Virus record (IMG/VR): IMGVR_UViG_3300022744_000001
Location: 258,022 to 322,021 of that record
Length of the DNA: 64,000 nucleotides
Direction: 5' to 3' (one strand)
From: a virus
Shown: piece by piece, positions 16,946-53,439 of the stretch
How the letters are laid out: each line of letters opens with the position of its first letter
How positions within the stretch are numbered: position 1 is the first letter of the stretch
Program-made: the position numbers and the translations under genes
The notes under the pieces: model-generated
The model's database searches: none
Told to the model about the DNA's origin: nothing
The model's input: the letters and a program-made list of their open reading frames with translations, nothing else

Positions 16946-16963
16946 AAATCACCTCGGCTCAGG

Positions 16964-19900
16964 TCAGAAGGTTCGGTTGGCCACTGTGATCGTGTTCGGG
17001 TCCACATCATAGTGCACGTGGTTTGACACCAGGGGGTGACCCTCGATGCGGTACAAGTCCGCCGCCGCGTACCCTTCTCTCGTGCCATTCGTCCCGATAA
17101 TCACCTCGGAGGTGTACCCGTCGTTGCTGAGCCTGGAGGCGTTTGTGACCACGAGCATCATTAGCTCGTCGCCCGCACTGGCCTCGTTCGCCCCCACGTT
17201 GGTAACCGAGTTGCGCACCAGGAATGCCCGACCTGTGATCAAGTTCGTGTCGCGGCCCGTGCCCTCCTGGTGGTCGTACGTGGCATGCAGCTCGCCGCCC
17301 GGGTGGCTACCCGACCCAAGGAAGACCGAGCCACCGCGGTTCGTGCGGAAGTTGGTCAACAGAGCATAGTTGCCCGTCTCGCCATCCACATGCACCAGGG
17401 TGTCCCCAGGAACCCCAGGAGACCGTTCCGCCGTCTGAACCTCAACTTCTTCGTACTCGGCCGACGAGGCAACCAAGCTCGAGATGCTGGTTCCAGTACC
17501 AACCGAGTTGGTGTACCGGAACGGAGCCTTGTTCGTGTCGGAAAAACTTCCGCCATGGAACTGGTAGTCCTTCCAGAACGCACCCAGGGGGAGGCGCTCT
17601 GTGCACCCGAGATAGTCCTGGCTTACCTCACGGTCATTCGTGACCGACAGGGTCGAACTCAAGTGCCCCGGAAGGATGGGGGGCCGAGGAGCCACGCCCG
17701 AAGAAGGTGGGTAGTTAGTCAAATCTTCTCGGCCCACGTTGCGGAAGTCGTACTGGTTGACTTCGACGATGTCCCCGGAAAGGCGACCGGTGCCGAGAGT
17801 CGTCACGAATCCAATCGAAGCCAAAATCTCGAGTGGCTTCTGGTTTGGACGCGTGAGGTTCGTGAGGTCGATTTCGGACGATTGAACCTGGTAGGCCACC
17901 GAACTCGACAACGGGCCCGCGGAGTAGGGGATGTCCACGTAGCTCGTCTGGGAGCCCCAGGCGTCGCCCTGGTAAGGCGTACGGCTGTAGTTCACGAGAG
18001 CCGTGTCCGCCGCCGAAATGGGCGCCGGGATGATGGCCGACGGGCCTGCGATGAAATTGCTGAGGTTGGTCGCCCGGTTGCCCGTGTTGGCACCCGTGCC
18101 CGTAGGACGGTTCCGCGAAAGCACGAGGCGGAACGGCTTGCTGAGGTCGAACGCACCACGGTCGAAACCAAAGAGGCTGGCCTCGATGACATAGTGGGCC
18201 GACTCAAAGCTCGCGATCGGGGTCGGAGACTTGGTCAGGTCAAGAACGTCCGCATTGAGCACGAACGTCGAATCCCCGTCGTCGTCGATTTCGATCCAGA
18301 AGGTCGGGCCTTTGAAGTCCTGTCGGAGCAGGTTCTTCGCACCACCGCCACCGATGCTCGCACGAGTGGAAGGGTTGAAGGCCGAGCCATTGGTCTTGTA
18401 GTCGCTGGCCTCGTACACCGCGAAGAGGCGAGCGATACCATAAAAGGGCGGAAGCTCGAGGCCCTTGCGCCCCATGCCACGCTGGTCGGTGAAAAAGCGA
18501 AGGCCCGCAAAGGTGTTGCCACCGAACGAGAACGTCGCGTTGTACGTGGCTGGAGTGGTCGAAACGCCAGAGAAGTTACCCGTGGACAGCGCTGCATAGG
18601 ACAGCGTGCCGTTCACGTAGTTGATGTACTGGCGGTTGTGGTCCGGGTCGTTGAGGTTCGTGTTCAACCCCTCAAGCGACTGGAGCATGTAGTTGATGCC
18701 GTTGTGGAAGTTCGTCCCGTTCACAGGGAGGATCGGCACTCGCACTTCGCCCCAGCCAGGTACCAAATGGCGAGGCAACGTGACGTAGAAGTTCTTCCGG
18801 TTTGCATCGGAATCCGTGGTGCCACTGAAGAGGCCCAGCGGGTCCGTGGTTGTCCACTTCGACGTCGTCCCATCCAGCTTCTTGAGCGGCATGAGCGACT
18901 GTGTGTGGTGGATTCGATAGTCGATGCCCGTGGCCGTGGGGATGTTCCGGTCCACCGTGAACGTGGTTGCACCCACGGCACCCGTGATTCGGTACCTTCC
19001 AGCCGCAAGGCCCGTGTCGATGATGAGGGTGTCATCCGCTTGGACGTTGGCACCCGAGAAGTTCTGAGTGCTGTCCGTGAACGTCAGGGTCAGGTTGGAA
19101 ACGCCAGCCGTCCCCGTCGTCACAGGTGACGAGTAGGGATTGGCCGACGTGCCGTCCAAGGCGTGAACCTGGGTCGGGAACGACACGTGGCGGAAGGGGG
19201 ACAGGATAACGGTCTTCGACCCCACGTCCGCATAGGCTTCCGCCGTAACGGGGAGGAGATTCTTGTACTCGTTGTTCCGGTACTTCGACCAGAGGAGCGC
19301 CCAAGAGGTTCGGAGAGCAGGCAGGGGAGACGTGGAAATGTTCACGCCCGACTGCTGCACCATGAGCGTTGCACTGGGGTTATACAGCAGGATGTTGTGC
19401 AGAGCGTCCGGGCGACGGGACAAACCACGCCCACCGCCGTACTGCACGTGCATCGTGATGTAGACGTCCCGAGTAGACGGGAACGGAGAACCCACACCCT
19501 TGAACTTGATCGTAATGTCGTCGTTCGGTCCGGGATTGTTGGGGGTCACCTTGTAGCGGTGAGGCGGAAGAGGGGCTTCGTCGCCGTCCAAGCGAACTTC
19601 AATCGCACCACGACCCCTACGAATTACGTAGGAAACACTCGAGTCCGTGGGGAGGTTTTCATCCACATGAACTGAATCGTTTCCATTTACCGTGTCAATC
19701 AGATAGGAACCGGCAGCGGGTCCAGTGAAGATGACCAGAGTGTCCCCAGGAAGCACCGAACCCAAGTTGTTGGTGTCCGTGAAGGTCCGGGTGCCGTTGG
19801 TGCTACCCGTCGAGCCACTTGCAGGAGCCTCATTCAAGAACCGAACCTGGTCGCCATCAGCACCAGGGACCGTATTCTTGAACTGCGCAATGGCGACAGT

Positions 19901-21547
19901 GATTTCGTCGCCATTGCCGTCCCCAAGGGTGGACTCGGCGGTCCATTGACCCGGGGTAGTACCCGAGGGGGACGCCAAACTCGTCACCGTTGCGCCAATC
20001 GCCAAGGAGAAGTTCAGGTTCTGCACCTGAGCAAACCCGGGGGACTGCACTGCGGTTGCCGAGGGAGTGCAGATGACTTCGACCTTCTGCTGCACCGGAG
20101 CATCCGAATAGATCATGCGGATGTTGTCGGGAGCATCGATCTTCGTCACGCCCAGACCAGCCGCCGAAGCGCTGATACGGTCCTGGTACGCCACGAAGGT
20201 TCCCTGGGTGCTGCCACCGGAACGCTTCCAGTTCGCCCGGAGCTGCCCCTTGAGGAGCTTGTCCAGGTTCGACTGCAAAAGCGTGGCGTAGTTGAACCCG
20301 TTGGGATTCACAACGTGACGAAGGTCCAGGACGTCGGTCGCCGCAATCTGGTCTGCAAAGAGGCCGTCCGGGCGGCCGGACAACACCTTCACAGGGGCGC
20401 CCGCTGGGTGAGCCTCTGCCTTCGTCCCGTTGACTCCGCGACTCACACCACTCACGGTCGTCCCCGTGATGGCTTGGTACGTCATCAACTCGTCCCCAAT
20501 TTGGATGAGCACTGGGGAAGTAGGCGAAGCCGGGAGCGGAATGTCCGTAGCCGAAGCCAACGTAAACGTCGTGGCGGTCGAAGTCATGGACGACGCAATC
20601 GACGGGGTCGTCGAGAAGGTCCTGATGCCGGTACGGTCAGTCGCCGTGGGGTTGCGGTTGAAACCACCGTTCAAATTCTGGCTGGGGTCGGGAGACCAGG
20701 CCACCCCGTTGCGGCGGAAGACGACGCAAAGCGGGATTGCGTAGACATACCCATCCACCGTGCCGAGAGCGTTCTCCGTGCCGTCTCCAGCACGCCAGAG
20801 GCCCGCATCGCCAAGCTCCTGCCGCATGTTGGCGAAGGTGTACGACGTGGCTGACGAGGCCGCGCCCTGAGCCTTCACCGTGGTGGGGTCGAAGCCATCC
20901 GGATAGGTCGCGAGGCCAATGAGACCCTTCACGACACGGATGCGGTATTGAACCTGGACGCGCTGAGTGGTCTCAAACCCAATAGCCGGGTCCTGGATGT
21001 CGTCGCTGAGGTAGCTGTAGCCGCCCTCGACGTTGCCATAGCGGTAAATGGCCGAAGCCGACGGCTTGTTCAGCGTGCTCGGAGTCGAAGGCACGCGAGC
21101 CTGCCAAACCTCGAGAAACACGAAGTCGGAACGGAAATCGCCGCTGTTGGACGGGGGCGGGTCGAGCGTGATCTTGTTCGTCGTATCGACGTTGTTGGGC
21201 GAGCCCGGAGGAGTACCGGTCTTCGTACCCGTCACCGGGATGAGCCACCCGTTGACCACAGCCCACATGATCGAACGCTTCTCGCCACTGCGCTGACGGC
21301 CAAACTGAAGCCAATTGCTCCAGCTCGAGTCAGTGACGAAATCCTTCGAAGTGTTGACTTCGTTCCCCAACCACCCCGAGGGGGTGTTCCGCATGATGAA
21401 CTGCTGACGCCAATCGGTGTCGAGCTGCTGCATCAGGTTCAACTCAGCATCCGTAGGGGGCTTGCCCTGCTGCCAGATGACTTGAGTGAACTGAGCTTGC
21501 TTGGGGTCCAGGACGCGGCTCACGCCGCCGCCAAACTTGTCCGCCAT
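16964..21547 (-). CDS. giant virion structural protein P1 (1527 aa); its N-terminal ~350 aa are paralogous to the 867-aa protein at 31543..34146
   Basis: Shared blocks between the two proteins are MADKFGGGVSRVLDPKQAQF/MGQKNFGGAVSGYLDPTGRAF, DFVFLEVWQARV/DLLVLEVWRKL, TQRVQVQYRIRVV/TKRVQIQYRLRAV and GLWRAGDGTENALGTVDGYVYAIPL/GLWRAGDGDPSNALGTVDGYMYAIPL. The composition is Ser/Thr/Gly/Asn-rich and beta-type. Confidence 0.8.
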   Translation of the reverse strand: MADKFGGGVSRVLDPKQAQFTQVIWQQGKPPTDAELNLMQQLDTDWRQQFIMRNTPSGWLGNEVNTSKDFVTDSSWSNWLQFGRQRSGEKRSIMWAVVNGWLIPVTGTKTGTPPGSPNNVDTTNKITLDPPPSNSGDFRSDFVFLEVWQARVPSTPSTLNKPSASAIYRYGNVEGGYSYLSDDIQDPAIGFETTQRVQVQYRIRVVKGLIGLATYPDGFDPTTVKAQGAASSATSYTFANMRQELGDAGLWRAGDGTENALGTVDGYVYAIPLCVVFRRNGVAWSPDPSQNLNGGFNRNPTATDRTGIRTFSTTPSIASSMTSTATTFTLASATDIPLPASPTSPVLIQIGDELMTYQAITGTTVSGVSRGVNGTKAEAHPAGAPVKVLSGRPDGLFADQIAATDVLDLRHVVNPNGFNYATLLQSNLDKLLKGQLRANWKRSGGSTQGTFVAYQDRISASAAGLGVTKIDAPDNIRMIYSDAPVQQKVEVICTPSATAVQSPGFAQVQNLNFSLAIGATVTSLASPSGTTPGQWTAESTLGDGNGDEITVAIAQFKNTVPGADGDQVRFLNEAPASGSTGSTNGTRTFTDTNNLGSVLPGDTLVIFTGPAAGSYLIDTVNGNDSVHVDENLPTDSSVSYVIRRGRGAIEVRLDGDEAPLPPHRYKVTPNNPGPNDDITIKFKGVGSPFPSTRDVYITMHVQYGGGRGLSRRPDALHNILLYNPSATLMVQQSGVNISTSPLPALRTSWALLWSKYRNNEYKNLLPVTAEAYADVGSKTVILSPFRHVSFPTQVHALDGTSANPYSSPVTTGTAGVSNLTLTFTDSTQNFSGANVQADDTLIIDTGLAAGRYRITGAVGATTFTVDRNIPTATGIDYRIHHTQSLMPLKKLDGTTSKWTTTDPLGLFSGTTDSDANRKNFYVTLPRHLVPGWGEVRVPILPVNGTNFHNGINYMLQSLEGLNTNLNDPDHNRQYINYVNGTLSYAALSTGNFSGVSTTPATYNATFSFGGNTFAGLRFFTDQRGMGRKGLELPPFYGIARLFAVYEASDYKTNGSAFNPSTRASIGGGGAKNLLRQDFKGPTFWIEIDDDGDSTFVLNADVLDLTKSPTPIASFESAHYVIEASLFGFDRGAFDLSKPFRLVLSRNRPTGTGANTGNRATNLSNFIAGPSAIIPAPISAADTALVNYSRTPYQGDAWGSQTSYVDIPYSAGPLSSSVAYQVQSSEIDLTNLTRPNQKPLEILASIGFVTTLGTGRLSGDIVEVNQYDFRNVGREDLTNYPPSSGVAPRPPILPGHLSSTLSVTNDREVSQDYLGCTERLPLGAFWKDYQFHGGSFSDTNKAPFRYTNSVGTGTSISSLVASSAEYEEVEVQTAERSPGVPGDTLVHVDGETGNYALLTNFRTNRGGSVFLGSGSHPGGELHATYDHQEGTGRDTNLITGRAFLVRNSVTNVGANEASAGDELMMLVVTNASRLSNDGYTSEVIIGTNGTREGYAAADLYRIEGHPLVSNHVHYDVDPNTITVANRTF

Positions 21548-21594
21548 GGTCTTCTCCGATTCGATCCGTTCTTGCCGTCAATCGTGGTCGCGCA

Positions 21595-22248
21595 CTAAAA
21601 CAAAAGTGCCCAGGACCCGATGAAGACCCGACCACGTACGGTCACGTCAGTTACCCGCGTAAATCGAAGAATCACCTGGGTACCTTGAGAACCATTAGGG
21701 ATAGTTAAAAGTGCTTTGTCCGTTGCGGAGATGAAGTTAACTCCACCGTCAAAGCTGACTTCCGCAGTCACATCAACGTCCGGGGCCACTTCTCGGTAGG
21801 ACCGCTGAAAGGCTGAGGTGCGGGCATCCGAATCGACAACCTCGAAAAGCTCGTAGGTCAACGTCGCTTGAGCCGGGCCTGCACCAGGGCCGCCCCACGT
21901 GATCCCCAGCGGAACCGTCTCGAGCACCGGGACTTGGACGTCAGTGGGGTACAAAGCCACCGCCCCATTCTTGCCGACAAGCACGCCTGTGCTGTTCGCC
22001 AAGTTCACCCCGCTCTCATCGAGCATATCGTCGTAGGCAATCTGGGTGAAGAGGCCGTAGGTACCCAAAATCCCCGCGTACTTCTTTGTGATGAGGTCCG
22101 GGAGGTCCGTGGGGTTCTGCACGATCACGTCGTCAGGCACCCGAACCACGTAGTTTCCCGTGATCTGGGTTTGAGGGGGCACCCCAAGTGACGCCACTAC
22201 GTCATTGATTTCGTCGTTGTACTGGTTGATGAGGTAGTGAGTGCTCAC
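21595..22248 (-). CDS. virion structural protein (217 aa)
   Basis: An ORF in the structural operon. The upstream giant gene overlaps it by 4 nt. Confidence 0.6.
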   Translation of the reverse strand: MSTHYLINQYNDEINDVVASLGVPPQTQITGNYVVRVPDDVIVQNPTDLPDLITKKYAGILGTYGLFTQIAYDDMLDESGVNLANSTGVLVGKNGAVALYPTDVQVPVLETVPLGITWGGPGAGPAQATLTYELFEVVDSDARTSAFQRSYREVAPDVDVTAEVSFDGGVNFISATDKALLTIPNGSQGTQVILRFTRVTDVTVRGRVFIGSWALLF

Positions 22249-25200
22249 TTGTTCTCTCCCTTGAGGGGCTTCTGACCGTACCTGCCAGGCACCCCCGACC
22301 GCACATTCGTGATGCGGAGGAGGTTGACCTTACCCGCCGGAGTCGGATGGATGTGGTTTGCCTTGGGTGCCGGAAGAATCGTGTTGCCAACCGTCTCGTT
22401 GGGCATACCCACGATGGCCCCGCTGATCTGCCAGTACGGACGGCTCATGTGCCGCATACGCAGCGAGATGTCGCTGAAGCCTTCGAAGTCCACGTCTTCC
22501 ACAAACACCTGGTCGGCACTATCTACCAACACCGGGTGTGCGTTATGGCCGATGGTCCACACGAACACGTCCTCGCGGGGTACCGCGTGGAACCTGTGAC
22601 TGGTCGGGACCGCCACGGACACTTCACTCTGGTCCGTGCTGATCGTGATAGCCTTCGGGGCGCTAACGTCGCCGTCCACAACGTGGAAGATGAATTCGTT
22701 CGTGTAGGTTCCGTGCTTGATCGAAACCGTTGTGTTTCCCGTGGGCACCGGAGAAATCGAGCCCTTCAAGAAGCAGTGTTGAGTAGCGGGGGCGGTAACC
22801 ACCGAGCTGCCCGAGGAGGCACGATAGTACCCCGTAGTGGAACCAACCGACCCGACATAATCGATTTTGACGATGTCGTCGCGCTGGACTGAGCTGTACA
22901 ACTCCCCCACCGTAGTGAGGGCACTGATCACCATCCCGTCCAGATAGCCGGACGGCCAGCGAGAATCGCTTGATGTCAGCATGTACGAGCGGTTGCCGCT
23001 CGGGGGCGTCGAGTCCGTGTTATTCGTCGGAAGGCTGCCCGCCGAAGTAATACGGTTGTTCTCGAGGTAGGTCAGGTATCGAACACCCGTTTGAATCGGG
23101 GTCGTCAGGGCGGAGAAGCTCAAAACACGACCCGCACTGCCTGCCGTTGTCCAAGAACTCAACGAATCCAAGTCTACCAAGGTCTGCGAAATGGACTCAG
23201 CCTCAGTGCTCAAGAGCGTAGAAAGCTCGTCCGCGACCTGGAAGGCCACCGAGATAGTCCACTGAGCGGACACCGGATTCCATTTCGCGTGGGCTGCTCG
23301 AGCAACGTACTGGCTTGTGGAAGCCGAGTTGATCGATCCATAGCCCACACCAGGCTTGGAGCCGTAGAAGGACGAGGAGTTGCCCGAACCAATGGGGTTG
23401 GAGAGGGTGACCTCGTGGACGACTGAGAGGTTCAAGTCGATGAAGTTGACCAGGGCCGCGTAACTGCCACTGATGTTGTTCACCTTCGACATGCGCACCA
23501 TGGCAAAGTGGCTGCCATTGAACGAGATCGAGGCGATGTTGTAGGGGGTAGCCTCGGAGCTGAAATCGAAGGTTACCGTTTTGCGAAGCGTCCAGTTCGG
23601 GGTGACCACGTGTGCATGCGCAATGGTACCGAGGTCCGCCGAGTTCGCAGTGAAAATAACGAAGTCCCCACGGCTCTCCAGGTAGAAGAAGCCCAGGATG
23701 TTGTCGTCGCTGATCGCGCTAATCGTGGTGTCGAGGGAGCCAGCGGGCCGCACCAAAACACTCTGCTGCTTGAGCGTGCCCGAGGGGTTGAAGAACGCCA
23801 GGCTGGTATCCAGCACAGGCAGCGCCCCTTCTCCAGCCAGAATCATTCCGTACACGGTATACCCAATCGACGTGCTGTCCGCCGAAAGGTCCGCGCTCAG
23901 CTGAATCTGATTGGTGGCACCATTTACGGCGACAACCTTGTAGACGCCATTCATGTTCGAGAACTGGGGGTCGCCGAACACGGTACCCGAAGGGGGAGCA
24001 GTACGAACAATCTGGACTAGGTCACCCCTCTTCGCCAGAAGGTTCCCAGAAGCCGTCAGTTTACCATCGGAAGAGATGGTCCCAAGGTTCCCACCCCCGT
24101 TAATCCCACTGGAGTTGAACGCAGCGGCGTTGGCGATGTTGACGTTGGAGCGGAACCCATCCTTGGGGATCCGATACATGCTCAGGTACGGGCCGTACTT
24201 CGAAGCCACCACGAACTGAGTCCCATCCCAAAGAATACGGGGGGACGAGATCTGGTAGGCCGTCGTTAGGTGCGAGAGAACGTAGGTTGAAACGTTCACA
24301 TTGAGGGGCTCATTCAGGTAGCTCGAACTCACAAGTCCGATTGGACGAGTAGAGTTCAGGATGGTGATACCCAAAGTGCAACCAGAGTTGAGGTTCGCGT
24401 TGACACGAGGAACCCCGCCAACACGCCAGGCAACCGCGAGCTTTTCCCCAGACCAGCAAACCTCAAAGGTCAACGCGTCCTGGACCTGCGGGTTGTTGAG
24501 CACCACCTGCGAGCCATCTGGCTTCACAACCGTAGGCCCACCGATACCGAAATCGAGATCCGCGTACCCAACCAAGTTGATCCAGTCGTTCTGGTACTGG
24601 TTGAAGTTGTAGGTCTTGGCCCGTACGCCAGTAAGCTCTTCGCCTTCGGTGCGGTCGTCCACGCCGAGGTCAAAGAAATAGAGCCGGTTTTCCGCGGCGA
24701 TCACGCCAAGGAACTGACTGCCCGTCCAAACGACTCGACCCGTGTGTGCTGGGTGCGAGTAATCACTGAACCCAACCCCCGCACCACCGTTCTGGAAGCG
24801 CGAGCCGCGAGGCATGAGACCGTTTTGAACACGGAGGCGCTTGCGGATCGGGTTACGACCCTCGGCATCCGTAAAGACCGCGCACACCGAGGTGAACCAC
24901 GAGTCCACGAAACGAGGATCGGGGCTATCCACCTGCGAATAGAGCGGGTCACCACCCGAACCAGCGTAAGGGTTCGGGCCGTGGTTGATGTAGAAGCTCT
25001 GAACACCCCAGTGGATGAATGCGTTGCGGAATCCATCCGTGTCGAAGAAGTTGCTCGAGGCCCCGATGCCGCCATGACGAGTCAAAACGTGTTTACGCGT
25101 CTTCTCCGCGAAGTTCGTGACCGACGCTCCCGACTCAAGCGTCAAGCTCTTCAAGCCCGACTTCCAAGGGCCGAAAGTTTGGCGGAAGGCACGAAGCTGC

Positions 25201-28200
25201 TTGTTGAAGCTCCCGGAGAGGCCCCACTTCTCAAGGTCCACGGCGCAGTAGAAGTTGTCACCCCAAGCGATCGCCATGTAAGGCGCTTCGGACGGGGTTT
25301 GAACGGAGGTACCACGCTTCGGGGCGCCTACGCAGATGCCCTGGAAGCTGAGGTTCGCCGACAACCGATAGCCCTCTACCAGGTCGTTCCACTGGTTCGT
25401 GGTCAACCCAGAGATCGCATCGGTCACCACCGACCCGAACATATTGCGGTTCAGGACTTCCTGCTTGCGGTCGTAGATGGTGGACCCGCTCGAGTCCGAG
25501 TTCAAAGCATGAGTCGTGTAGGCGGTAGAGACGATCATCTCCCCGTCCACGGACACACGGAACCCAGGGGTCTTGAAACCCTTGGTCGTAGACGCGCCAC
25601 CGGAGAAAGCGCCGTCCGCAACCTGGTACTCAATCACCGAGCCAGAGATTGCGCCCGTGGGGGCTGCACTGAGGCGCACCACGTGCTCACTGAACACGCT
25701 CGAGATGCTGACCGTGTTCCCGTTGTTGGGGAAATAGATTCGCGTCCCAGAGTCCACCGTGATAGGCAGGAAGGCTCGAGTGGTCGCCGAGACCGACCCC
25801 ACACCGTCTTGCCCGAAGAGCATGTTCGGATCGATGAGGTAGTGGCTACCACTGAAGAAGAAATACGCCCCCGAGTAGGAGTGGTATGAGCAAGGGGTCG
25901 GGCTCACAACCACCCAGTCCTGACCGTTCCATGTGATGTCAGGAATCAACGAGGGGTACTCGTTGTAAACCGAGGAGCACTCCATGAAGTAGAGCAGCGG
26001 GGCGACCTCGTTGTAAGGGCGCCACGTGTTCGACTGCACGTTGCGATAGGGAACCATCGGGTCGCGACTACCCATAGAGCGCTCAAGCGTGTCGCGGTCC
26101 TGTGGGGTGAGAACGACCGTGCCGGTGTTCGGCGTGTAGTAAATGTCGAGGATGTTGAAGCTCGTACCGAGATGCTCACGGTAGGGCCACGGGTTCATGG
26201 ACCCGTGCGGGAAATCGAGGTAGGCGATGTTGAACCCGTTGTCCCAGTTCTCGACGTTCGAATTGCGGTGAGCCGCAGTCGTGTCGAAGTTCTGGTAAAC
26301 CGCCAACACCTTGCCGTTCGGGCCCTTGCTCAGGCGCACGAAGTCCGGCTCACGCTCCTGGTCGTAGTAAACCGAAGCGTCCGGTCGGAAGTTGGTCGTA
26401 TTGGCGTGGCCTGCAACAACTTTGGACGTCGTAGACGCACCGGTACCGCCATTGACAGTGCACGCCATGACCCAGCATAGCGGCGCAATGGCATAGGTGT
26501 AGCTCCCATTCGGGGGCACCGTCCCGTCGTCATAAACGACGGTCAGGTTGGCCGCACTTGAATCTATCACCACACCGTTCTTGCCGTTGGTTAGATCCAA
26601 GAAACGGCTGCCAATACGAACAGAAAGGCCAAGGGTGTCGCCGGTCCAGTTCGTAACTGCGGGGTCAGTCAATACCCCAGAGGCAATTGTAGCCCCAGAA
26701 CCCGTGACGATCTTATGCCGACGCACCGAGTAGGCGACAACGAACTCGTCATTGACCCCGGACCAAGCCACATCAGTAGACCCGATCAAAGACCGAACGA
26801 TAGAAGGGCTGGCGTTGTTCGGTGAGTTGGTCGTACGCTGCAAAGCCAGACTGACTGAACCAAACGAGAGATTGAGAGTGTAGACGTAGAGGTTCGGGGA
26901 AACCACGCCCCCCGCAAAGTTCACCGTTGCAATGACCGCGTAGTTGCCGTTGACCGCCACCGAAGGCGTAGTGGTCATGCCGTTGCCGGTGTTGGACACG
27001 GTATCGGTAAAACGAACCGAATACTGAGCGGTCTGAGTGTTGTACCCCAGAGACACATAACGAGTCACCGGGTACCCTGCCCCAGGGGTGGCATCCTCTA
27101 CCCAAACAACAACGTAGCCGCCGTGGTTCTCATCGAACGCAGCTCGAGGGTAGTGACCCGTCGTGTGGTGGGCAGACTGCAACCCCACCGAAGCTCGGGT
27201 AAAGAGGGGGAACGAAGTCCCTGTCATGGCCTTGAGGTCGATGCCCTTGTACGCGTTGTCGCTGTAGACCATCGAGCCGTCAGGACGCAACTCGTTGAAG
27301 TACACGATGTCGGCAGTCTCATCCGCAACGAAGATAGCCCAGACCCTGCGAATCGGATTCCAAACCACCTCATACCCTTCGACGGTATTCGAGGTGTTGG
27401 TGCCATTTGCGTACTGCCAGGTGTTGGGGATCGTCGTGGTTCCATTCCAAGTGGGGTCGTAAACACCCCATGGAGTGTTCGCGCCAAACTTGAACGCCCC
27501 AGAGGTCGTCCCCTTGACCTTGGTAGCCGCCCCCTCGCCCTCCACAGTCACTCCGGGAGGAACATAAACTGGGCTGTTCGCGATGAACCGGAACTCGCCG
27601 CGCTTGAGGTGCACAACGCCATTGCCGGTGAACGAAGCCGCTAACAGCGCGTCATTCAAATGAGCATAGGAGTCCACCCAAGTCTCAGTGGAAACGCTCC
27701 CTTGCACGGACAGGTAGTTGAAGTCTGCGGCCAACTCCCGCGGATTGTTCGAGGTGGAGACCGTGATCGACGTTTTCTCTTGGATGGGGGCTTTGGAGAA
27801 CTCGTTGCCGAACCGGTTGTCCCCGAAACTCACCATCTGCACCGCGTTTGTGCCACGGTAGATGCTGTAGTTGCCGCTCGGGTCCCAACCATCAACGAAA
27901 TCGTCGAGGTAGACCGTCGTCCCATCACTGGAGATGTCTACAACCAACCAAGTCAAACCGTTGCTGACAACCAAGTCGCCACGGCGCACACCCAGGTTCT
28001 TGTAGTTCAGGGTGCCTTCGTTGAAGTTGGTTGTCCCGTTGTCCGGAGCAGCGTTTCCGCTGTAAACCAACGTGCGGCCAATACGAATGCCGCGGAACGA
28101 GTCAGGCGACTCGAGGTTGATCTGACCGCCGAAATCCGTGTTTGTCGAGCCAGTGTTGGCCCGAACCATGAAATCATTGCCGTCGGTCGTGGCCCCAAGT

Positions 28201-29378
28201 ACCCACCCCGTCCCGTTGTAATGAACCTTCGCGGGGGTGAGGGTGCTGAACTCCGTGCTGTTCGGGACAAACAAACTGTCCGCACTGCGAGCGGTCAGGC
28301 TTTGGTCCACCGCGAAGAACACGGCGTAGAGCTGGAGTCGCCCAGTCGTAGTGCTCACGCCACCGTTGCCGCCGCTCGGCTTGATGTCATCGCCAGCTCG
28401 AGGAGCGACCGAGAAGCGGACGATGCCCGCCTTGTAGTCGATCGTCATGCGCTGGTCAGCCGCCGGGATCGTGCTGTCAATGACCGGGTTCAGAGTCGCA
28501 ATCGGCGAGGTGAGATCAGGTGCAGTGCCGCTCGCGTTGCTCTTGTAGAGCACAACGCGGTAGCCAAGGTGGTCGAGCGCAAGACGGGGCCCAGACGTGT
28601 TCGGAGGGCCGAATACGGCATCCGCACGGTCCACAGAAGAGTCCGCCCCAAAGAGCGGCGGGACGAGGTTGCGGACGCGGTCAGCGTTGATGGCATTGAG
28701 GGTGGGGCCCGCCTGCGTATGCAACGTCGAGCCGGGGACCACCATCATGAACGACTGCTCACGCCCCAGAGGGCCGGAGCCCGGGACCGCAAACAGCTGG
28801 ACCACATTGGGTCGGATGATTGTGTAGGGGTACCCCAGGGCATCCATGGTCAAAGCCGAGGATGCGTTGTTGACTCCAAGGGAGTTGGCCGCCACCGAAG
28901 TAATCGAAGCGACCTTGTACTCGTTCGCCCCCGAGCCACTGGGTCGATTGCGGATGATCAGGTAGTCCCCAACCTGAACCCCCGCCGCCACCATGTCTAC
29001 GGAGGTCCCCCACGTGATGCCGCCAGGAGAGGTAACTGCCCCATCTTCGGTTGTGACGTTGACAACCGTGCTAGGGCCGTACCACTGAACGGTCTCCGAA
29101 GGAACGTTATCCCTAGCGATCTGCGTAATGGTCAGAAGCCCAGTACCAGGGTAGACCGGGGGACGAATCGAATAGATGTCCCCCAAGTCGATGGTCGGCG
29201 CCGTGCTGTACGGCTCCGCATTGATCGACCCCACCCCCACCACGCCCTCCGGAGACAACCCGGAGTCGCCCACCGTGAGAGCCTTGCCGCCCGCAAAGAA
29301 ATCTGACTTGCGAAGCTGTTCCAGCTCCAAACGAGTCAGATTCGAGTAGGTACCTGTTGCGGAGTATGAGCCTGCCAT
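22245..29378 (-). CDS. giant virion protein (2377 aa), beta-rich; fibre, spike, decoration or injected-protein candidate; not a tape measure
   Basis: A single uninterrupted 7.1-kb ORF with Ser/Thr/Gly/Asn/Val-rich composition and no long Ala/Glu/Lys helical segments. All overlapping antisense ORFs are Arg-rich artefacts. Confidence 0.85.
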   Translation of the reverse strand: MAGSYSATGTYSNLTRLELEQLRKSDFFAGGKALTVGDSGLSPEGVVGVGSINAEPYSTAPTIDLGDIYSIRPPVYPGTGLLTITQIARDNVPSETVQWYGPSTVVNVTTEDGAVTSPGGITWGTSVDMVAAGVQVGDYLIIRNRPSGSGANEYKVASITSVAANSLGVNNASSALTMDALGYPYTIIRPNVVQLFAVPGSGPLGREQSFMMVVPGSTLHTQAGPTLNAINADRVRNLVPPLFGADSSVDRADAVFGPPNTSGPRLALDHLGYRVVLYKSNASGTAPDLTSPIATLNPVIDSTIPAADQRMTIDYKAGIVRFSVAPRAGDDIKPSGGNGGVSTTTGRLQLYAVFFAVDQSLTARSADSLFVPNSTEFSTLTPAKVHYNGTGWVLGATTDGNDFMVRANTGSTNTDFGGQINLESPDSFRGIRIGRTLVYSGNAAPDNGTTNFNEGTLNYKNLGVRRGDLVVSNGLTWLVVDISSDGTTVYLDDFVDGWDPSGNYSIYRGTNAVQMVSFGDNRFGNEFSKAPIQEKTSITVSTSNNPRELAADFNYLSVQGSVSTETWVDSYAHLNDALLAASFTGNGVVHLKRGEFRFIANSPVYVPPGVTVEGEGAATKVKGTTSGAFKFGANTPWGVYDPTWNGTTTIPNTWQYANGTNTSNTVEGYEVVWNPIRRVWAIFVADETADIVYFNELRPDGSMVYSDNAYKGIDLKAMTGTSFPLFTRASVGLQSAHHTTGHYPRAAFDENHGGYVVVWVEDATPGAGYPVTRYVSLGYNTQTAQYSVRFTDTVSNTGNGMTTTPSVAVNGNYAVIATVNFAGGVVSPNLYVYTLNLSFGSVSLALQRTTNSPNNASPSIVRSLIGSTDVAWSGVNDEFVVAYSVRRHKIVTGSGATIASGVLTDPAVTNWTGDTLGLSVRIGSRFLDLTNGKNGVVIDSSAANLTVVYDDGTVPPNGSYTYAIAPLCWVMACTVNGGTGASTTSKVVAGHANTTNFRPDASVYYDQEREPDFVRLSKGPNGKVLAVYQNFDTTAAHRNSNVENWDNGFNIAYLDFPHGSMNPWPYREHLGTSFNILDIYYTPNTGTVVLTPQDRDTLERSMGSRDPMVPYRNVQSNTWRPYNEVAPLLYFMECSSVYNEYPSLIPDITWNGQDWVVVSPTPCSYHSYSGAYFFFSGSHYLIDPNMLFGQDGVGSVSATTRAFLPITVDSGTRIYFPNNGNTVSISSVFSEHVVRLSAAPTGAISGSVIEYQVADGAFSGGASTTKGFKTPGFRVSVDGEMIVSTAYTTHALNSDSSGSTIYDRKQEVLNRNMFGSVVTDAISGLTTNQWNDLVEGYRLSANLSFQGICVGAPKRGTSVQTPSEAPYMAIAWGDNFYCAVDLEKWGLSGSFNKQLRAFRQTFGPWKSGLKSLTLESGASVTNFAEKTRKHVLTRHGGIGASSNFFDTDGFRNAFIHWGVQSFYINHGPNPYAGSGGDPLYSQVDSPDPRFVDSWFTSVCAVFTDAEGRNPIRKRLRVQNGLMPRGSRFQNGGAGVGFSDYSHPAHTGRVVWTGSQFLGVIAAENRLYFFDLGVDDRTEGEELTGVRAKTYNFNQYQNDWINLVGYADLDFGIGGPTVVKPDGSQVVLNNPQVQDALTFEVCWSGEKLAVAWRVGGVPRVNANLNSGCTLGITILNSTRPIGLVSSSYLNEPLNVNVSTYVLSHLTTAYQISSPRILWDGTQFVVASKYGPYLSMYRIPKDGFRSNVNIANAAAFNSSGINGGGNLGTISSDGKLTASGNLLAKRGDLVQIVRTAPPSGTVFGDPQFSNMNGVYKVVAVNGATNQIQLSADLSADSTSIGYTVYGMILAGEGALPVLDTSLAFFNPSGTLKQQSVLVRPAGSLDTTISAISDDNILGFFYLESRGDFVIFTANSADLGTIAHAHVVTPNWTLRKTVTFDFSSEATPYNIASISFNGSHFAMVRMSKVNNISGSYAALVNFIDLNLSVVHEVTLSNPIGSGNSSSFYGSKPGVGYGSINSASTSQYVARAAHAKWNPVSAQWTISVAFQVADELSTLLSTEAESISQTLVDLDSLSSWTTAGSAGRVLSFSALTTPIQTGVRYLTYLENNRITSAGSLPTNNTDSTPPSGNRSYMLTSSDSRWPSGYLDGMVISALTTVGELYSSVQRDDIVKIDYVGSVGSTTGYYRASSGSSVVTAPATQHCFLKGSISPVPTGNTTVSIKHGTYTNEFIFHVVDGDVSAPKAITISTDQSEVSVAVPTSHRFHAVPREDVFVWTIGHNAHPVLVDSADQVFVEDVDFEGFSDISLRMRHMSRPYWQISGAIVGMPNETVGNTILPAPKANHIHPTPAGKVNLLRITNVRSGVPGRYGQKPLKGENK

Positions 29379-29410
29379 TTGATTTCCCGTTCAGGTAGAA
29401 GAAGCCGTCG

Positions 29411-31540
29411 TCAGGGAGTCCATTCAACTTCGGTGACGCTTAGGTTCTGCCCTACTCCGTTTTTGATAAATGAAATTCTGACGAAAATCAGGAATTTCCC
29501 GGAGCCGTTGTTCGAAGTGAAAGAACCCGTGTCGTAAGCGTAGACGTCCCCAGAAATTCCGGTGCGGCATCCACGGAAGTCCGAACTCTTGTTCAGATCC
29601 GGCACACCATTCGCGCGACCAAGGTCAAGCCAGCCGGTCGCCCCGGGCACCTTGATCTGCACGATGGCTCCGCCAGGGTGGTCGGTGATTTCGTTGAGGT
29701 CGATGGCCGCATTGCCTGCGTCAAAAGCCGAGAAGGCCAACCCCGTGATACGAAGGTGTCCGGTGTTGCGCGCGATGCCCGTGTCGAAAGCACGGACCCA
29801 GCGACGCTTTGTGCTCGAGGCGTCCCCAGAAAGCACCGTGGCATAGTTTCGACCCGCATTTGCAGGGTAGATACTGGCCGCGGTGAAGTCGATGCTCGGG
29901 TAAACCAAGCGACCGCTGAGGACCTGCAACTCGTTCGAGGGGATCGAGACCGACGAGTTGAACGCGTTGCCGCCCGCCGGAAGGATGGGAGTAGTCGCCG
30001 ACGAAGCCGCGAACGTGTTGACGTGGCGATAGGTCTCGGACGTGAACGAGTCCAACGTGTCCGAGGCAACCCCAGTGAACTGGGTGTTGTAGAGATACTG
30101 CTCCGTGCTGACCGCATCGACGTTGGCTGCGAAAGCCCCGCGCCAACGAACCCTGACTTGAGCGAAGGGGTAGGTCGGAGCCGCACTCCCCGTCGCCACC
30201 GGGTGAGTCGAGTGCTGGAAACGAGCCACTGAGGTGAGTCCAGCTGGATTGACCAACGTGTAGGGCAACCCGCTGCTGTTATGGACGATGTGATTCCCAG
30301 AGTCGTCGTAAAGCTGGTACCCCGTTGTGCCTCCACTACCAAAATCGCCCATGAGAACTGCAACTGGAGTTCCGGCCGACTCGTACCCGACCGGTACGCT
30401 CGCTGAAGCCACGGTATTGGTGAGGTACGAATTCTCGAACAGGCTGCTGACCGTCGAGAGGATATTGATTTGCAGGTTGAACGAGTTGTAGTAGGCGATG
30501 CCGGACAGGTTTGAGGTGGTCAGCGTACCTGTGGGGCTCGTCGTGATCGTGGCGCCACTCGGGGGCGTCCCGCTCAAAGCGTCCACGAAAACGTTCAAGC
30601 GGTTGACGTTGTCGTAGTTCGTGCTGTCGGCAGGAGCCGCGCTGTAGCAGTTGGCCGCCACGAAAGTCAGCGCCGTGAGCGAGGCTGGCTGAATAGACGC
30701 CAGCGTGGTCGCGTAGGTCTCCTTCCAGTGCACCAGCAGGAACGAGCCGCTGTCGCCGCTCACCAGCGTCACGGACGTGCTGTACTTGGCAAGCTGATAG
30801 GCACTGAAATTCGTGCTGAAAGGGGTGTATTCGCTGCCAGGGTACGAGCTTGCATAGGGCAGACGATCGATGAGGCTGATCTTGTCCAGACCCGTATTGC
30901 TCGCCGTGTAATCGGTCTGGCCCGATGTCCGAGTAGCCTCAATGAAGGCCGACCCAGGAAGACCCGCCGGTGCGGGGTTAGGGCCAAGCCACAAGGCCGC
31001 CATCAACGTGGTCTGTCCCGCGTTGAAGAAATCCCCGTTCGTGGTTGAGTAAAGAGCGAGGACGCCGCGGTCAGCAGGGTAAATGGTGCCGCTGATGGTC
31101 TGAGTCCCTGCACTTGCCACAGGGGTCAGGTACTTCGTCACGATACCCACGCCAGACTTCGTGAAACCACCCTGAATGGCGGAAGAGCCCACCGTCATGG
31201 CGTTGCTCCACGACGGGAGACCAGAGTTCGGCACCGACCCATTGTTGAAGCCGATACGGTCAGGCTTGACGGGCAAAAGGTCTGAGAGCGTCGAGAGGGC
31301 GTCCATAACCGATTCCCCGTCATAGGGACCACCGGCCGAGGAGAGGAGCGGTTGGCCCGTTGTCGGGTTCACCGGGGGCATCCCAATGGACCCCGCCATG
31401 TGAGCGTCAACAGGGTCGCTGATGTGCGCCGAAAGTTCGCCACCCCCAAGAGGGAAAGCCAACGCCGAGGCCGGAACCTGCCCCGCGGCAAGCTTGCCTG
31501 GGCCGGGCTGAACTACGCTAGGGTTCTTGGACGAGGGCAT
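29411..31540 (-). CDS. virion structural protein (709 aa)
   Basis: A long ORF with beta-rich composition that directly follows the P2 paralog. Confidence 0.75.
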   Translation of the reverse strand: MPSSKNPSVVQPGPGKLAAGQVPASALAFPLGGGELSAHISDPVDAHMAGSIGMPPVNPTTGQPLLSSAGGPYDGESVMDALSTLSDLLPVKPDRIGFNNGSVPNSGLPSWSNAMTVGSSAIQGGFTKSGVGIVTKYLTPVASAGTQTISGTIYPADRGVLALYSTTNGDFFNAGQTTLMAALWLGPNPAPAGLPGSAFIEATRTSGQTDYTASNTGLDKISLIDRLPYASSYPGSEYTPFSTNFSAYQLAKYSTSVTLVSGDSGSFLLVHWKETYATTLASIQPASLTALTFVAANCYSAAPADSTNYDNVNRLNVFVDALSGTPPSGATITTSPTGTLTTSNLSGIAYYNSFNLQINILSTVSSLFENSYLTNTVASASVPVGYESAGTPVAVLMGDFGSGGTTGYQLYDDSGNHIVHNSSGLPYTLVNPAGLTSVARFQHSTHPVATGSAAPTYPFAQVRVRWRGAFAANVDAVSTEQYLYNTQFTGVASDTLDSFTSETYRHVNTFAASSATTPILPAGGNAFNSSVSIPSNELQVLSGRLVYPSIDFTAASIYPANAGRNYATVLSGDASSTKRRWVRAFDTGIARNTGHLRITGLAFSAFDAGNAAIDLNEITDHPGGAIVQIKVPGATGWLDLGRANGVPDLNKSSDFRGCRTGISGDVYAYDTGSFTSNNGSGKFLIFVRISFIKNGVGQNLSVTEVEWTP

Positions 31541-31542
31541 CT

Positions 31543-34146
31543 TCAGCTTCTCCGGTTGAGCAGGTTCCCAGCAACACGGAACACAGCCGCGACAGTTGTG
31601 TTGTTGGAGTTCAAGAACTTCACCGAGTTCTCAGCGTCGAAACTCGCCCAACGAATGAGCAGGACAAGATAAAGGGCACCCTTGGGCCCCAGAGTCGTGT
31701 CCGCAGTGCTCTCCATGAGCGTCGGGAGAACGACCTTGTGCACACGGTCGTCCGACAGATTTTGCCCGAAGGCGTTCGGGTTGTACCCCGCAGCCGCATT
31801 GGGGAAATAGGTGCGACCTTCAATGTCGATGTCCGAAGGGGACCGTGTGAAGGTGACTCCTTCCGGGTTCGGCACGTAGGGGATGTACGCCGGGACTTTG
31901 AGGAAACCCGTTGAGGCGTTGAACTCCGCAACGTAGATCTCCGGTGCGCCGTCCAGCTCGTGCTCACCAGACCAGGTGCCGCCATTCTTGATGATGCCGC
32001 CGGTTTGAACATATGCGAGAGGGTAAGGGTACCCTTCGCCCTGGGACGCCGACCCCGTTGTGATCGTGTAGAGGGAGGGGGAGATCCAGCGCGGCACGAA
32101 TGTGATGCTCGTCCCCAACACACTCGAGTGCACCGTTTGAGGCGCTCGAGTGCGGTAGTAGACGGTCATCTGGAAACCCGTCTGAGGATAGGGCCGCACA
32201 GCTTGGTACGTGACGCTGATGGTGGACCCAATGGCCGCAGCACTGACCAAGTTCAAATCACGGCCAGAAGAATCCACCGATGCTGGGGCTGGGTTGCCGT
32301 TCACCGTCACACCGACCAAGGTTTTCACACGTTCAGGCATGAGGTGGTGCCGAGCCGTGTGGGTCGAGTTGGAGATGAAGGAGTAGGTCAGATTGCCCGT
32401 CAGATACTGCATCTGAGCTTCACGATGAGTAGCATCGATAGCAAGCGTATCTGCACTGGCGAACGACACCGGAGCGGTATTGGGCAGAGCCCCAGGGTTG
32501 TTACCCGAAAAGCTCGCATTGCCGAAATCATCAGATGGGGTTTTGGCCAAACCACATCCAGGCGGGTACGCGATCAAAAGGTCCACATACATGGGCTCGG
32601 TCGTAAACCCTGACACCGGGGCAGCGCCAAGAGTGATCACGATGTTGCCAGGGGGGTAACTTCCAATCCCCGTGATGCTCTCAACCGGCCAGGGGGTCGT
32701 GGTCGTGGTGACATACAACATGCCGACTTCAGCGCTCTTCTGGCCAGCAGACGCGCCCTGCACCCATACCCGAGTCACATCAACGATGCGCGTACCACTC
32801 GGGGCTCGGCTCAAGAACCCAATCGCACCCGAGTAGGGGTACTGGGCGATCACCGAGGGGTTGATCGTAACCTGGGTGCCCGTCTGCCATGTCGAGGTGG
32901 AGACGTTCGGGTCACCAGGGGAGATGGTGAAGGTCATGACCTCGTAGATGGGCCGGTCGGAGAAGAACCGTCGAGTGCAGTCGAACTGCCCCAGGAACTC
33001 CGCCCCAGGCGTGTCCCCCGTAACGACGCCATCCCCAGGAAGCACGCCGATCTCGTCCGCCCAAAGGGGGGAGTGGCCGTTGACCCCGCCGCCAATGGGC
33101 GTCGTCGTCCACTCGGTCTTCAGGTTGTTATCGAGCAGGTACCCGAAGTTCTTCTCAGCGATCTCCTGGTAGGAAGACCACCCGGTGAGAGAGACCGCGC
33201 GACGAAGATCGGCAACGTCCTGAATCTGAAACACGTCCGCGTAGAAACCGTCAGGACGGGTAGTTGAGGGGTAGTTGCCGCCGCCGTTGTGGTTGGTATT
33301 GCGGTCGAACGCCGTCGAATTGCGGCGGAAGATCGCCACCAGCGGAATGGCGTACATATACCCGTCCACCGTGCCCAAGGCATTGGAGGGGTCGCCATCA
33401 CCAGCACGCCAAAGGCCGGGGTCACCGTTCGCACTCTGGTTCACGTACACGAACGAGGAAAGGTTCCCGTCTGGAGTCGTAGGCGTCGGAGGCACCGTGT
33501 TGGCCACCACTGCTGGGTCGTCAATGCCCGCAGGGTAGGTGAAAACGTCCACCCCATGAACGGCACGAAGTCGGTACTGGATCTGGACACGCTTGGTCGT
33601 CTCAGTTCCCACTGTGCCGTCCAAGATGTCGTCGTCGTAGTTCAACCCTAAACCCGTCGGTACCTTGACGTTACCGTTGCGCCAGATTTTCCCACCCGCA
33701 GTCTTGCCATCCGTTGAGGGGGCCGCGGAAAGCAGCTTGCGCCATACCTCGAGCACGAGAAGATCAGTACGCTTTGCTCCCGCCCCGGTAGGGGGTGCAT
33801 TGAACGTAACCCGATTCGAGGAAGCATGGTTCGTGCACTGCACGTCGATGATCCAGCCATTCACCAGAGCCCGAAGGTTGTTCGAGAGGATGAGCTGGTT
33901 CGCCGTCGTGGTGCTGGTGAAAATCGGGTCGATGGAGTCGCTGTTGTTCAGCGGGTCATCCGTAAACCACCCAGAGGCGCATGCCTTCCTGGCTAGCTCG
34001 AGCCCAAATAGTGAAGCGACCTCGTCCGACAGGTTGAGGTCTTTGTCGAGAACGGGTTTGCCAGCCTGGTAGACAGCTTGCTCAAACGCCCTTCCGGTTG
34101 GGTCGAGGTAGCCGCTAACTGCCCCTCCAAAGTTCTTCTGGCCCAT
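31543..34146 (-). CDS. virion structural protein P2 (867 aa), N-terminal paralog of P1
   Basis: See the evidence for P1. The C-terminal regions of P1 and P2 are unrelated. Confidence 0.8.
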   Translation of the reverse strand: MGQKNFGGAVSGYLDPTGRAFEQAVYQAGKPVLDKDLNLSDEVASLFGLELARKACASGWFTDDPLNNSDSIDPIFTSTTTANQLILSNNLRALVNGWIIDVQCTNHASSNRVTFNAPPTGAGAKRTDLLVLEVWRKLLSAAPSTDGKTAGGKIWRNGNVKVPTGLGLNYDDDILDGTVGTETTKRVQIQYRLRAVHGVDVFTYPAGIDDPAVVANTVPPTPTTPDGNLSSFVYVNQSANGDPGLWRAGDGDPSNALGTVDGYMYAIPLVAIFRRNSTAFDRNTNHNGGGNYPSTTRPDGFYADVFQIQDVADLRRAVSLTGWSSYQEIAEKNFGYLLDNNLKTEWTTTPIGGGVNGHSPLWADEIGVLPGDGVVTGDTPGAEFLGQFDCTRRFFSDRPIYEVMTFTISPGDPNVSTSTWQTGTQVTINPSVIAQYPYSGAIGFLSRAPSGTRIVDVTRVWVQGASAGQKSAEVGMLYVTTTTTPWPVESITGIGSYPPGNIVITLGAAPVSGFTTEPMYVDLLIAYPPGCGLAKTPSDDFGNASFSGNNPGALPNTAPVSFASADTLAIDATHREAQMQYLTGNLTYSFISNSTHTARHHLMPERVKTLVGVTVNGNPAPASVDSSGRDLNLVSAAAIGSTISVTYQAVRPYPQTGFQMTVYYRTRAPQTVHSSVLGTSITFVPRWISPSLYTITTGSASQGEGYPYPLAYVQTGGIIKNGGTWSGEHELDGAPEIYVAEFNASTGFLKVPAYIPYVPNPEGVTFTRSPSDIDIEGRTYFPNAAAGYNPNAFGQNLSDDRVHKVVLPTLMESTADTTLGPKGALYLVLLIRWASFDAENSVKFLNSNNTTVAAVFRVAGNLLNRRS

Positions 34147-42606: not shown

Positions 42607-42614
42607 GGGTCACC

Positions 42615-43583: not shown

Positions 43584-43589
43584 GGTACC

Positions 43590-44558: not shown

Positions 44559-44561
44559 AGG

Positions 44562-45035: not shown

Positions 45036-45046
45036 AAGGCTCTACC

Positions 45047-46030: not shown

Positions 46031-46086
46031 CGCAGCAACCCCTCAAAGCCTCGCAGACCCAACACAAAGCGCTGGGCATAAGGGGA

Positions 46087-48018: not shown

Positions 48019-48126
48019 GTCGAGTCTGCCTCAACCACGCAAAGCATAGGTCAAATATGGGTTCTCAGATTTGACTGCTGCCACTAAAACCAGGTGTGCC
48101 TTCCCCAGCACGAAACCATGAGTCGC

Positions 48127-48837: not shown

Positions 48838-48846
48838 GGTGCACCC

Positions 48847-50261: not shown

Positions 50262-50264
50262 TGG

Positions 50265-52253: not shown

Positions 52254-52256
52254 TCT

Positions 52257-53435: not shown

Positions 53436-53439
53436 GATT

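Follow-up and report, generated by a model that had tools for sequence, protein, structure and literature searches.

We analyzed a giant gene in a 64,000-nucleotide stretch of viral DNA (positions 258,022 to 322,021 of IMG/VR virus record IMGVR_UViG_3300022744_000001; hereafter, the window). The 2377-amino-acid (aa) protein that it encodes, hereafter the giant protein, is probably a receptor-binding or adhesin protein at the periphery of the tail or baseplate in a huge phage with a contractile tail, and possibly one that binds or cleaves glycans. We favor this reading because the gene lies in a baseplate and fibre block, the N-terminal arm and adaptor of the protein are conserved, the body beyond them diverges, and this body has been replaced in some relatives. 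The protein is best described as a phage host-recognition protein that carries a giant tandem-propeller body as its distal module, and it does not represent a new principle.

The gene is real and is not an artificial fusion. The original prediction, which was made from the letters of the window, described a single uninterrupted 7.1-kb gene, and this description was confirmed by the open reading frame (ORF), by the chance of a stop-free run of 2377 codons (~1e-35 from the base composition of the window) and by homologues. An identical protein is encoded on three independently assembled contigs (Logan SRR7614061, ENA ERZ27252002 of 448,224 bp, and JGI), and a search of 5.8 billion proteins yielded at least 87 homologue clusters, nearly all of 2200-2900 aa. 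In the alignment, 46 homologues run collinearly from an invariant M1 to the C-terminus. An artefact in which sequencing or assembly errors joined two or more genes is therefore excluded. A tape measure protein is excluded as well, since only 44 and 28 residues per 1200 (~3%) are helical in the two structural models described below and Ala, Glu and Lys together account for 12.8% of the residues. The composition (S 10.3, G 9.8, V 9.5, T 8.8, A 7.7, N 6.6, E 2.8 and K 2.3%) agrees with the earlier description of a protein rich in Ser, Thr, Gly, Asn and Val and poor in Ala/Glu/Lys helices. The large neighbours that had been named with it (1804, 1527 and 1148 aa) also exist, and the four proteins sum to 6856 aa, or 20.6 kb.

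The gene lies in a co-directional block that spans ~17 kb to the right end of the window. The only strong family match in this block is that of the 1148-aa protein to phrog_6, which identifies the block as tail and baseplate. In GenBank, the nearest records belong to LR745208, an uncultured phage of 485 kb, and to Tunturiibacter phage Tunturi_5, a cultured jumbo myovirus of 309 kb and 58% GC with a host in the Acidobacteriota. The wedge protein is 37% identical to an ORF of LR745208 and 30-32% identical to Tunturi_5 gp241 ('baseplate wedge subunit'), and a 378-aa protein of the window matches Tunturi_5 gp242 ('baseplate protein'). Within the block, the giant gene sits downstream of the baseplate core, among fibre-like genes.

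This arrangement was compared across 23 loci from contigs of 30-620 kb, 19 of which are IMG/VR viral contigs. The order 1804-like, 579-like, 214-like, 867-like, 709-like, giant, 217-like, 1527-like, 101, 135 and 168 was found with minor gaps in some loci. A 709-like gene precedes the giant gene, or the shorter gene that takes its place, in 22 of the 23 loci; locus L027 begins within the giant gene and hence lacks an upstream flank. A 217-like gene follows in 22 of the 23, the exception being the outgroup L008. In a more distant clade, a 2039-aa version of the giant protein occupies the same gene order.

To describe the rate of evolution along the protein, we calculated regional identities to the query over 13 loci, excluding the outgroup L008. 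Identity was 42-60% for aa 1-400 (48-60% in all but one locus), 28-35% for aa 530-1100, 27-43% for aa 1100-1500, 17-25% for aa 1500-2060, 12-29% for aa 2060-2250 and 23-41% for aa 2250-2377, compared with 34-75% for five neighbouring genes. Conservation peaks in the arm, aa 1-70, where it reaches ~80% per column over aa 1-40. The giant protein as a whole scored 0.29-0.37 bits per residue versus 0.54-1.37 for the 214-, 867-, 709-, 217- and 1527-aa neighbours; with its adaptor set aside, no other protein of the conserved six-gene core evolves as fast. This combination of a conserved N-terminal part and a fast distal part is typical of receptor-binding proteins.

The distal body is a cassette that has been exchanged for an unrelated module. 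An exhaustive phmmer search with the adaptor (query aa 1-430) against 1.84 billion representatives retrieved only 103 proteins, and about ten proteins of 1070-1240 aa matched the family profile solely at positions 1-396. In loci L018, L024 and L025, such short forms (1211-1237 aa) fill the slot of the giant protein (positions 10001 to ~13700) and are followed by the 217-like gene. The short forms keep the N-terminal 395 aa of the giant protein, and the neck is present in both (hhalign of giant 537-621 with short-form 535-612, probability 90.6%, E 1.3e-6). Their distal part of ~800 aa is unrelated to the body of the giant protein, yet alike among the short forms. In neighbour-joining trees built for the 867-like and the 1527-like neighbours, the short-form loci branched at two distinct places amid loci with the giant protein, L025 as sister to L023 and L018 with L024 as sister to L006, and the outgroup L008 has the giant type. 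These placements indicate at least two replacements of the distal module, with the adaptor, the neck and the neighbouring genes staying the same.

The short-form distal module may be a beta-helix, as its sequence carries C-x-F/I motifs 22-29 aa apart and one short form showed a sub-threshold match to Pectinesterase (E 7.7e-4, 18.7 bits against a cutoff of 27). Searches for a beta-helix in this module by profile against PDB, PHROGs, tblastn against phages and an hhalign scan for rung periodicity were all negative or inconclusive, and a large-database search with the module gave six matches, none with a Pfam domain. The distant adaptor relatives P0117, P0119, P0122, P0125, P0126, P0131 and P0133 had no Pfam or PHROG match, and the contigs inspected for P0119 and P0133 were too short to reveal their gene surroundings.

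The main rival to a receptor-binding role is that the giant protein is a purely architectural part of an oversized baseplate, comparable to T4 gp7 and gp10, in which propellers serve as rigid blocks and interaction platforms and take no part in host recognition. The conserved length and domain order of the family, the collinearity of its 46 aligned members, the strict synteny with other baseplate genes and the presence of an ~80-aa domain in other giant proteins of the block would all suit such a component, as would the scaffolds DDB1, CPSF160 and Elp1 and the T7 nozzle among the structural matches of the C-terminal half. However, the protein is the fastest-evolving of the block outside its adaptor, its distal body was swapped at two places in the tree for an unrelated module one-third its size while the neighbours stayed unmoved, and the sister lineage LR745208 has wedge, 214-like, 867-like and 709-like genes yet no giant homologue. 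An indispensable scaffold would not tolerate such a swap, such a rate and such an absence, and we therefore regard the architectural explanation as unlikely.

Far less likely still is a role outside the tail, in which the giant protein would be internal to the particle, ejected or a decoration of the capsid. Very large phage proteins can be ejected. Against this, the gene stands between fibre-like genes of the baseplate block and far from any recognisable head gene in the window, a pattern of adaptor plus exchangeable module is not a feature of ejected proteins, and a compact propeller body of ~260 kDa would presumably hardly pass through a tail tube. Among the roles that the original prediction had listed for a protein of this size, that of a fibre or spike fits best, given the block, the conserved adaptor and the exchanged, fast-evolving body; decoration and ejection gained no positive support.

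We next consider the predicted anatomy of the protein. AlphaFold2 monomer models were built on the alignment of 46 sequences in two halves, aa 1-1200 and aa 1178-2377. The mean predicted local distance difference test score (pLDDT) was 76 for the first half and 72 for the second, with a predicted template modelling score (pTM) of 0.77 for the latter. The models contain ~3% helix and 30-39% strand, which upholds the earlier description of a beta-rich protein. The arm was modelled as disordered save for one short helix (aa 16-25), and the adaptor as a confident beta domain (pLDDT mostly 85-94 over aa 71-360 and 67-82 over aa 361-400). Beyond a lineage-specific insertion that is missing from ~70% of family members (aa 440-520) and the neck, the first propeller comprises approximately six four-stranded blades plus one small inserted barrel, with the blade count taken from the DSSP strand pattern. 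The second array comprises ~10-11 blades with small inserted barrels, across which W-x-G-x-x-F-x-V motifs recur; its conservation falls toward the C-terminus, and that of the protein climbs again at the C-terminal domain. Based on these models, the body most likely consists of ~17 beta-propeller blades, and the compactness of the monomer model hints at a globular unit.

Foldseek searches with the first half matched the propellers of GH93, sialidase Neu2, GH43, paramyxovirus HN and phage endosialidases at E ~1e-5. The second half matched the propellers of DPP9 and prolyl oligopeptidase, DDB1, CPSF160, Elp1 and the T7/Kp7 nozzle. In the viral fold library BFVD, the matches were propeller-bearing phage structural proteins, including gp424 and gp427 of phage G and one protein annotated as 'short tail fiber'. 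A profile-profile self-scan for internal repeats returned only two short motif-level matches, which indicates that the blades are old and divergent and did not arise by recent repeat expansion.

Sequence searches placed the giant protein in no described family. Pfam contained no family that matched it at E<=1, and the precomputed annotations of the 87 homologues list no Pfam domain either. No match was found in PHROGs or among PDB sequences, either by phmmer with the single sequence or by hmmsearch with the family profile, nor by tblastn against 50,697 GenBank phage records. The propeller repeat families WD40, Kelch, RCC1, YVTN, FG-GAP and BNR had no Pfam match in the protein, and the same was true of a Peptidase_S74 (PF13884) C-terminus; one BFVD match to an S74-bearing protein runs via its propeller at a template modelling (TM) score below 0.1.

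The original prediction had proposed a search for a pectate-lyase or beta-helix depolymerase fold, and the models did not bear this fold out. No Pectate_lyase_3, Beta_helix or related Pfam match was obtained (E<=1), and the models contain no long right-handed parallel beta-helix; aa 571-631 form only a helix and approximately six short strands, followed by four-stranded blades. The only similarity lies in the short, cap-like neck, whose motif VVHLKRGEFRF...VYVPPGVTVEGEG resembles the start of Pectate_lyase_3/Beta_helix domains.

A further question is whether the first propeller is an enzyme. It could be a glycoside hydrolase or esterase of the sialidase, GH93 or GH43 class, in which case the giant protein would be a depolymerase of capsule, exopolysaccharide or lipopolysaccharide; this is compatible with a receptor-binding role, and we consider it possible but doubtful. 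The top Foldseek matches are glycosidase propellers, including those of phage endosialidases. The first propeller also holds nearly all of the invariant charged residues of the family, many of them at or near predicted strand starts, and the later blades keep almost only W and G. Invariant or near-invariant are E667, R677, E696, H738, H742, R745, D869, H888, E1010, D1012, R1015, R1067 and H1069, of which E696, H742, R745, D1012, R1015 and R1067 are invariant. On the other hand, the likeness to sialidase, GH93 and GH43 is at the fold level only, with TM-scores of 0.3-0.4 and ~10% identity, and non-enzymatic propellers such as those of paramyxovirus attachment proteins score equally well. A check against the six-bladed sialidase-type fold gave E ~1e-5, yet TM-scores of 0.1-0.4 and a root-mean-square deviation above 10 Å. 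A regular-expression search of the giant protein for Asp-boxes (S-x-D-x-G-x-T-W) found none, there is no BNR or Sialidase Pfam match, and a conserved FRIP motif is absent, with a single YRIP at aa 1735 falling outside the first propeller.

From the receptor-binding reading and these features, we propose the following arrangement. Judging from conservation and synteny, the arm and adaptor would dock to a conserved site on the baseplate or to the co-conserved 709-aa and 217-aa partners. In the predicted structure, the neck links the adaptor to a globular body of ~1750 aa, in which the roughly six-bladed propeller, the ~10-11-blade array, the hypervariable region and the conserved C-terminal domain follow one another. 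The fast-evolving distal blades and the hypervariable region may face the host and set specificity, and the first propeller, with its invariant charged residues, may offer a conserved ligand-binding or catalytic pocket. The distal body is an exchangeable cassette on the constant adaptor and neck.

Several observations weigh against this reading. The presence of the giant protein in the virion is a prediction from genes, and the 'tail fiber' and baseplate labels in Tunturi_5 are computational predictions by the depositors and not experimental results. Because all fold matches are weak (E ~1e-5 to 1e-4, but TM-scores of 0.1-0.4 and ~10% identity), they establish 'beta-propeller' and no specific superfamily, and because propeller matches swamped the fold searches, the fold of the N-terminal adaptor was not identified by them. 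The giant protein contains no fibre-type trimerisation repeats, and the compact shape of its monomer model (pTM 0.77) departs from that of classical trimeric fibres and spikes. The 217-aa partner lies behind both the giant and the short forms and is thus no dedicated chaperone of the distal module. The constant length and architecture of the family, with 46 collinear members, would also fit a fixed structural scaffold, and mosaicism is common in receptor-binding proteins, unlike this collinear family.

We compared the giant protein with known systems. In function, it most resembles propeller-bearing receptor-binding proteins and endosialidase-type spikes. The endosialidase tailspikes of K1F and phi92 (PDB 3ju4 and 4hiz) likewise have an N-terminal particle-binding part followed by a sialidase-type propeller with an inserted small beta-barrel. 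They were among the Foldseek matches at E ~2e-5 to 2e-4, but with TM-scores of only 0.12-0.14. In contrast to them, the giant protein lacks Asp-boxes, a Pfam sialidase or BNR match, a triple-beta-helix stalk and a Peptidase_S74 chaperone, and it is ~2.5 times longer with approximately 11 more blades. The receptor-binding proteins of Staphylococcus phages of the phi11/80alpha type have, at the baseplate periphery, a five-bladed propeller that is attached by an N-terminal stem and binds a cell-wall glycan; these proteins are ~600 aa long, trimeric and equipped with a single propeller. The concept is the same, but no sequence or specific structural match to them was found. Tailspikes of the beta-helix type (Pectate_lyase_3/Beta_helix) differ in that the giant protein has no such Pfam match and continues with propeller blades after its neck.

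In architecture, DDB1, CPSF160, SF3B3 and Elp1 also carry several propellers in one polypeptide of >1000 aa that forms a compact cluster; these are eukaryotic nuclear scaffolds, and with a TM-score of ~0.1 the likeness is architectural only. Tunturi_5 gp245 and gp246 and Bacillus phage G gp424 and gp427 are also very large (770-1970 aa) and beta-rich, and in the jumbo myovirus Tunturi_5 the pair is encoded in the baseplate module, beside fibre genes. None of the four has a detectable sequence relation to the giant protein. In the phage G paper, gp424 bears the label of an adhesion protein family. Overall, the giant protein fails the sequence-level tests for sialidases, beta-helix depolymerases, S74-chaperone spikes and all named propeller repeat families.

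Hardly any huge phage above 400 kb has been cultivated; next to nothing is known of the hosts of these phages or of their adsorption machinery, and most of their structural genes lack annotation. The homologues collected here form a family of ~100 clusters that has neither a Pfam or PHROG model nor a name; no source names any member beyond 'hypothetical protein', and the family is not described in the jumbo-phage review, in the phage G paper or in the Tunturi paper. The giant protein is the only protein of the six-gene core found to be modularly exchanged and is also its fastest-evolving, which makes it the prime candidate for the host-range determinant of this uncultivated lineage of 250-620 kb. 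The family is a target for host prediction, for expression, for glycan-binding and activity screens, and for reading future cryo-EM (cryo-electron microscopy) data. A bolder proposal, which we regard as speculative, is that the ~260-kDa cluster of ~17 blades represents an undescribed class of host recognition that is ancestral in phages of 250-620 kb and sits on a 400-aa adaptor that alternatively bears a smaller module, and that the first propeller founds a new family of glycan-active enzymes. If a host-recognition role is true, giant tandem-propeller bodies would join trimeric fibres, beta-helix spikes and single propellers in the known range of phage receptor-binding architectures; should the protein be only a scaffold, its interest would be limited to specialists.

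The features of the giant gene and its surroundings are collected in Table 1.

Table 1. Positions of the giant gene, the predicted parts of its product and other features, in coordinates of the window (HMM, hidden Markov model).
Feature	Position	Strand	Basis
Giant gene, 2377 aa	22245..29378	(-)	ATG start; stop codon 22245-22247; ORF list and translation
N-terminal arm, aa 1-70	29169..29378	(-)	conservation map; invariant residues; pLDDT 41-63
N-terminal adaptor, aa 71-400	28179..29168	(-)	exchangeable module common to giant and short forms
~80-aa small beta domain within the adaptor, aa ~100-190	28809..29081	(-)	family HMM matches
Lineage-specific insertion, aa 440-520	27819..28061	(-)	gap fraction 0.7-0.8 in family alignment; pLDDT <50
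Neck/cap, aa 537-631	27486..27770	(-)	helix, then short strands; motif VVHLKRGEFRF...VYVPPGVTVEGEG
First beta-propeller, aa ~660-1080	26139..27401	(-)	pLDDT mostly >80; Foldseek matches
Second blade array, aa ~1140-2050	23229..25961	(-)	pTM 0.77; Foldseek matches; W-x-G-x-x-F-x-V motifs
Hypervariable distal region, aa ~2060-2250	22629..23201	(-)	gap fraction <=0.59; column conservation 0.14-0.2
Conserved C-terminal domain, aa ~2255-2377	22248..22616	(-)	pLDDT 77-91; invariant R2268, E2269, D2270
1527-aa fibre-like protein, end of block	16964..21547	(-)	N-terminus matches Tunturi_5 'tail fiber protein'
~80-aa domain in 1527-aa protein, aa 774-850	18998..19228	(-)	family HMM, E 4.5e-5
217-aa downstream partner	21595..22248	(-)	GTG start overlaps stop codon of giant gene (GTGA)
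709-aa upstream partner	29411..31540	(-)	homologue upstream of giant or short gene
867-aa fibre-like protein	31543..34146	(-)	N-terminus matches Tunturi_5 gp247 'tail fiber protein', E 3e-29
214-aa protein	34200..34844	(-)	phrog_5417, E 1.1e-22
1804-aa protein	36667..42081	(-)	segments match LR745208 1763-aa ORF
~80-aa domain in 1804-aa protein, aa 1336-1421	37819..38076	(-)	family HMM, E 1.3e-6
Paralogue arrays	42136..53958	(-)	identity among members
172-aa protein	53440..53958	(-)	phrog_5417, E 1.7e-6
270-aa protein	53980..54792	(-)	matches LR745208 1763-aa ORF
Baseplate wedge protein, 1148 aa	54801..58247	(-)	phrog_6 'baseplate wedge subunit', E 1.8e-27
Fifth giant gene, 1964 aa on the source contig	62474..64000	(-)	runs past the right end; two ~80-aa domains in visible part

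Two sets of candidate relatives of the giant protein were rejected. The giant ORFs of LR745208 (3642 and 1763 aa) were rejected as remote homologues. Tunturi_5 gp245 and gp246 were rejected as relatives because they showed no sequence match. This pair (L031 16297-25573) was deposited as 'regulator of chromosome condensation'; RCC1 repeats were not found in either protein at E<=1e-3, and the only Pfam matches are to He_PIG Ig-like (immunoglobulin-like) domains, in five stretches of gp245. Among 185,579 species genomes, one was matched by the family, through a 205-kb contig in a metagenome-assembled genome of 'Lysinibacter sp.', which favors a phage-specific family. This contig is probably a co-binned phage, and this single match in bacterial genome bins was rejected as evidence of a host.

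The window as a whole is phage DNA. A replication module with an AAA ATPase, a DNA polymerase, a primase, a DnaB-type helicase and an SNF2 helicase lies at 2.5-15 kb, and no tRNA genes were found in the 64-kb window of this 448-kb phage genome. Over the 19.5 kb of positions 16000-35500, we found 0 sigma-70-like promoter sites versus 4.4 +/- 2.2 expected from shuffles, and 11 terminator-like sites versus 16.2 expected, suggesting that the block is expressed as long transcription units from non-canonical promoters.

Among the neighbours, the 867-aa and 1527-aa proteins have their N-terminal ~300 aa in common (38% identity over 309 aa) and diverge beyond them, forming a second set of adaptor plus variable body in the block. 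Residues 304-389 of the 1527-aa protein match PHROGs that bear the labels tail, tail-fibre or virion structural protein. Across loci, no protein of the block is better conserved than the 214-aa protein, with 56-75% identity and 51% in the outgroup L008; this protein shares with the 172-aa protein a match to phrog_5417, a family with no assigned function.

The ~80-aa domain, with the motif G-V-x-x-G-D-...-V-x-x-V-...-L-T-L, is common to four of the block's five giant proteins (the 1148-aa wedge protein being the one without it) and recurs within the 2377-aa protein. Two copies stand in the visible part of the fifth giant protein, encoded upstream of the wedge-proximal genes, which makes a helical tape measure unlikely for that protein.

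Paralogues form arrays in the stretch that separates the wedge-proximal genes from the 1804-aa gene. They comprise proteins of 662 and 643 aa (54-61% identity, with a shifted internal repeat), of 233, 258 and 236 aa (34-38%), of 327, 322 and 322 aa (53-60%) and of 157 and 156 aa (53%), and they look like duplicated cassettes of fibre and accessory genes; LR745208 lacks this insertion. The 270-aa protein, encoded just after the wedge gene, matches the 1763-aa ORF of LR745208 (L005 36542-41833), and four short segments of the 1804-aa protein match the same ORF at 25-41% identity. These matches suggest that one gene was split or two were fused, and that in the phage of the window the paralogue arrays were inserted between the two parts.

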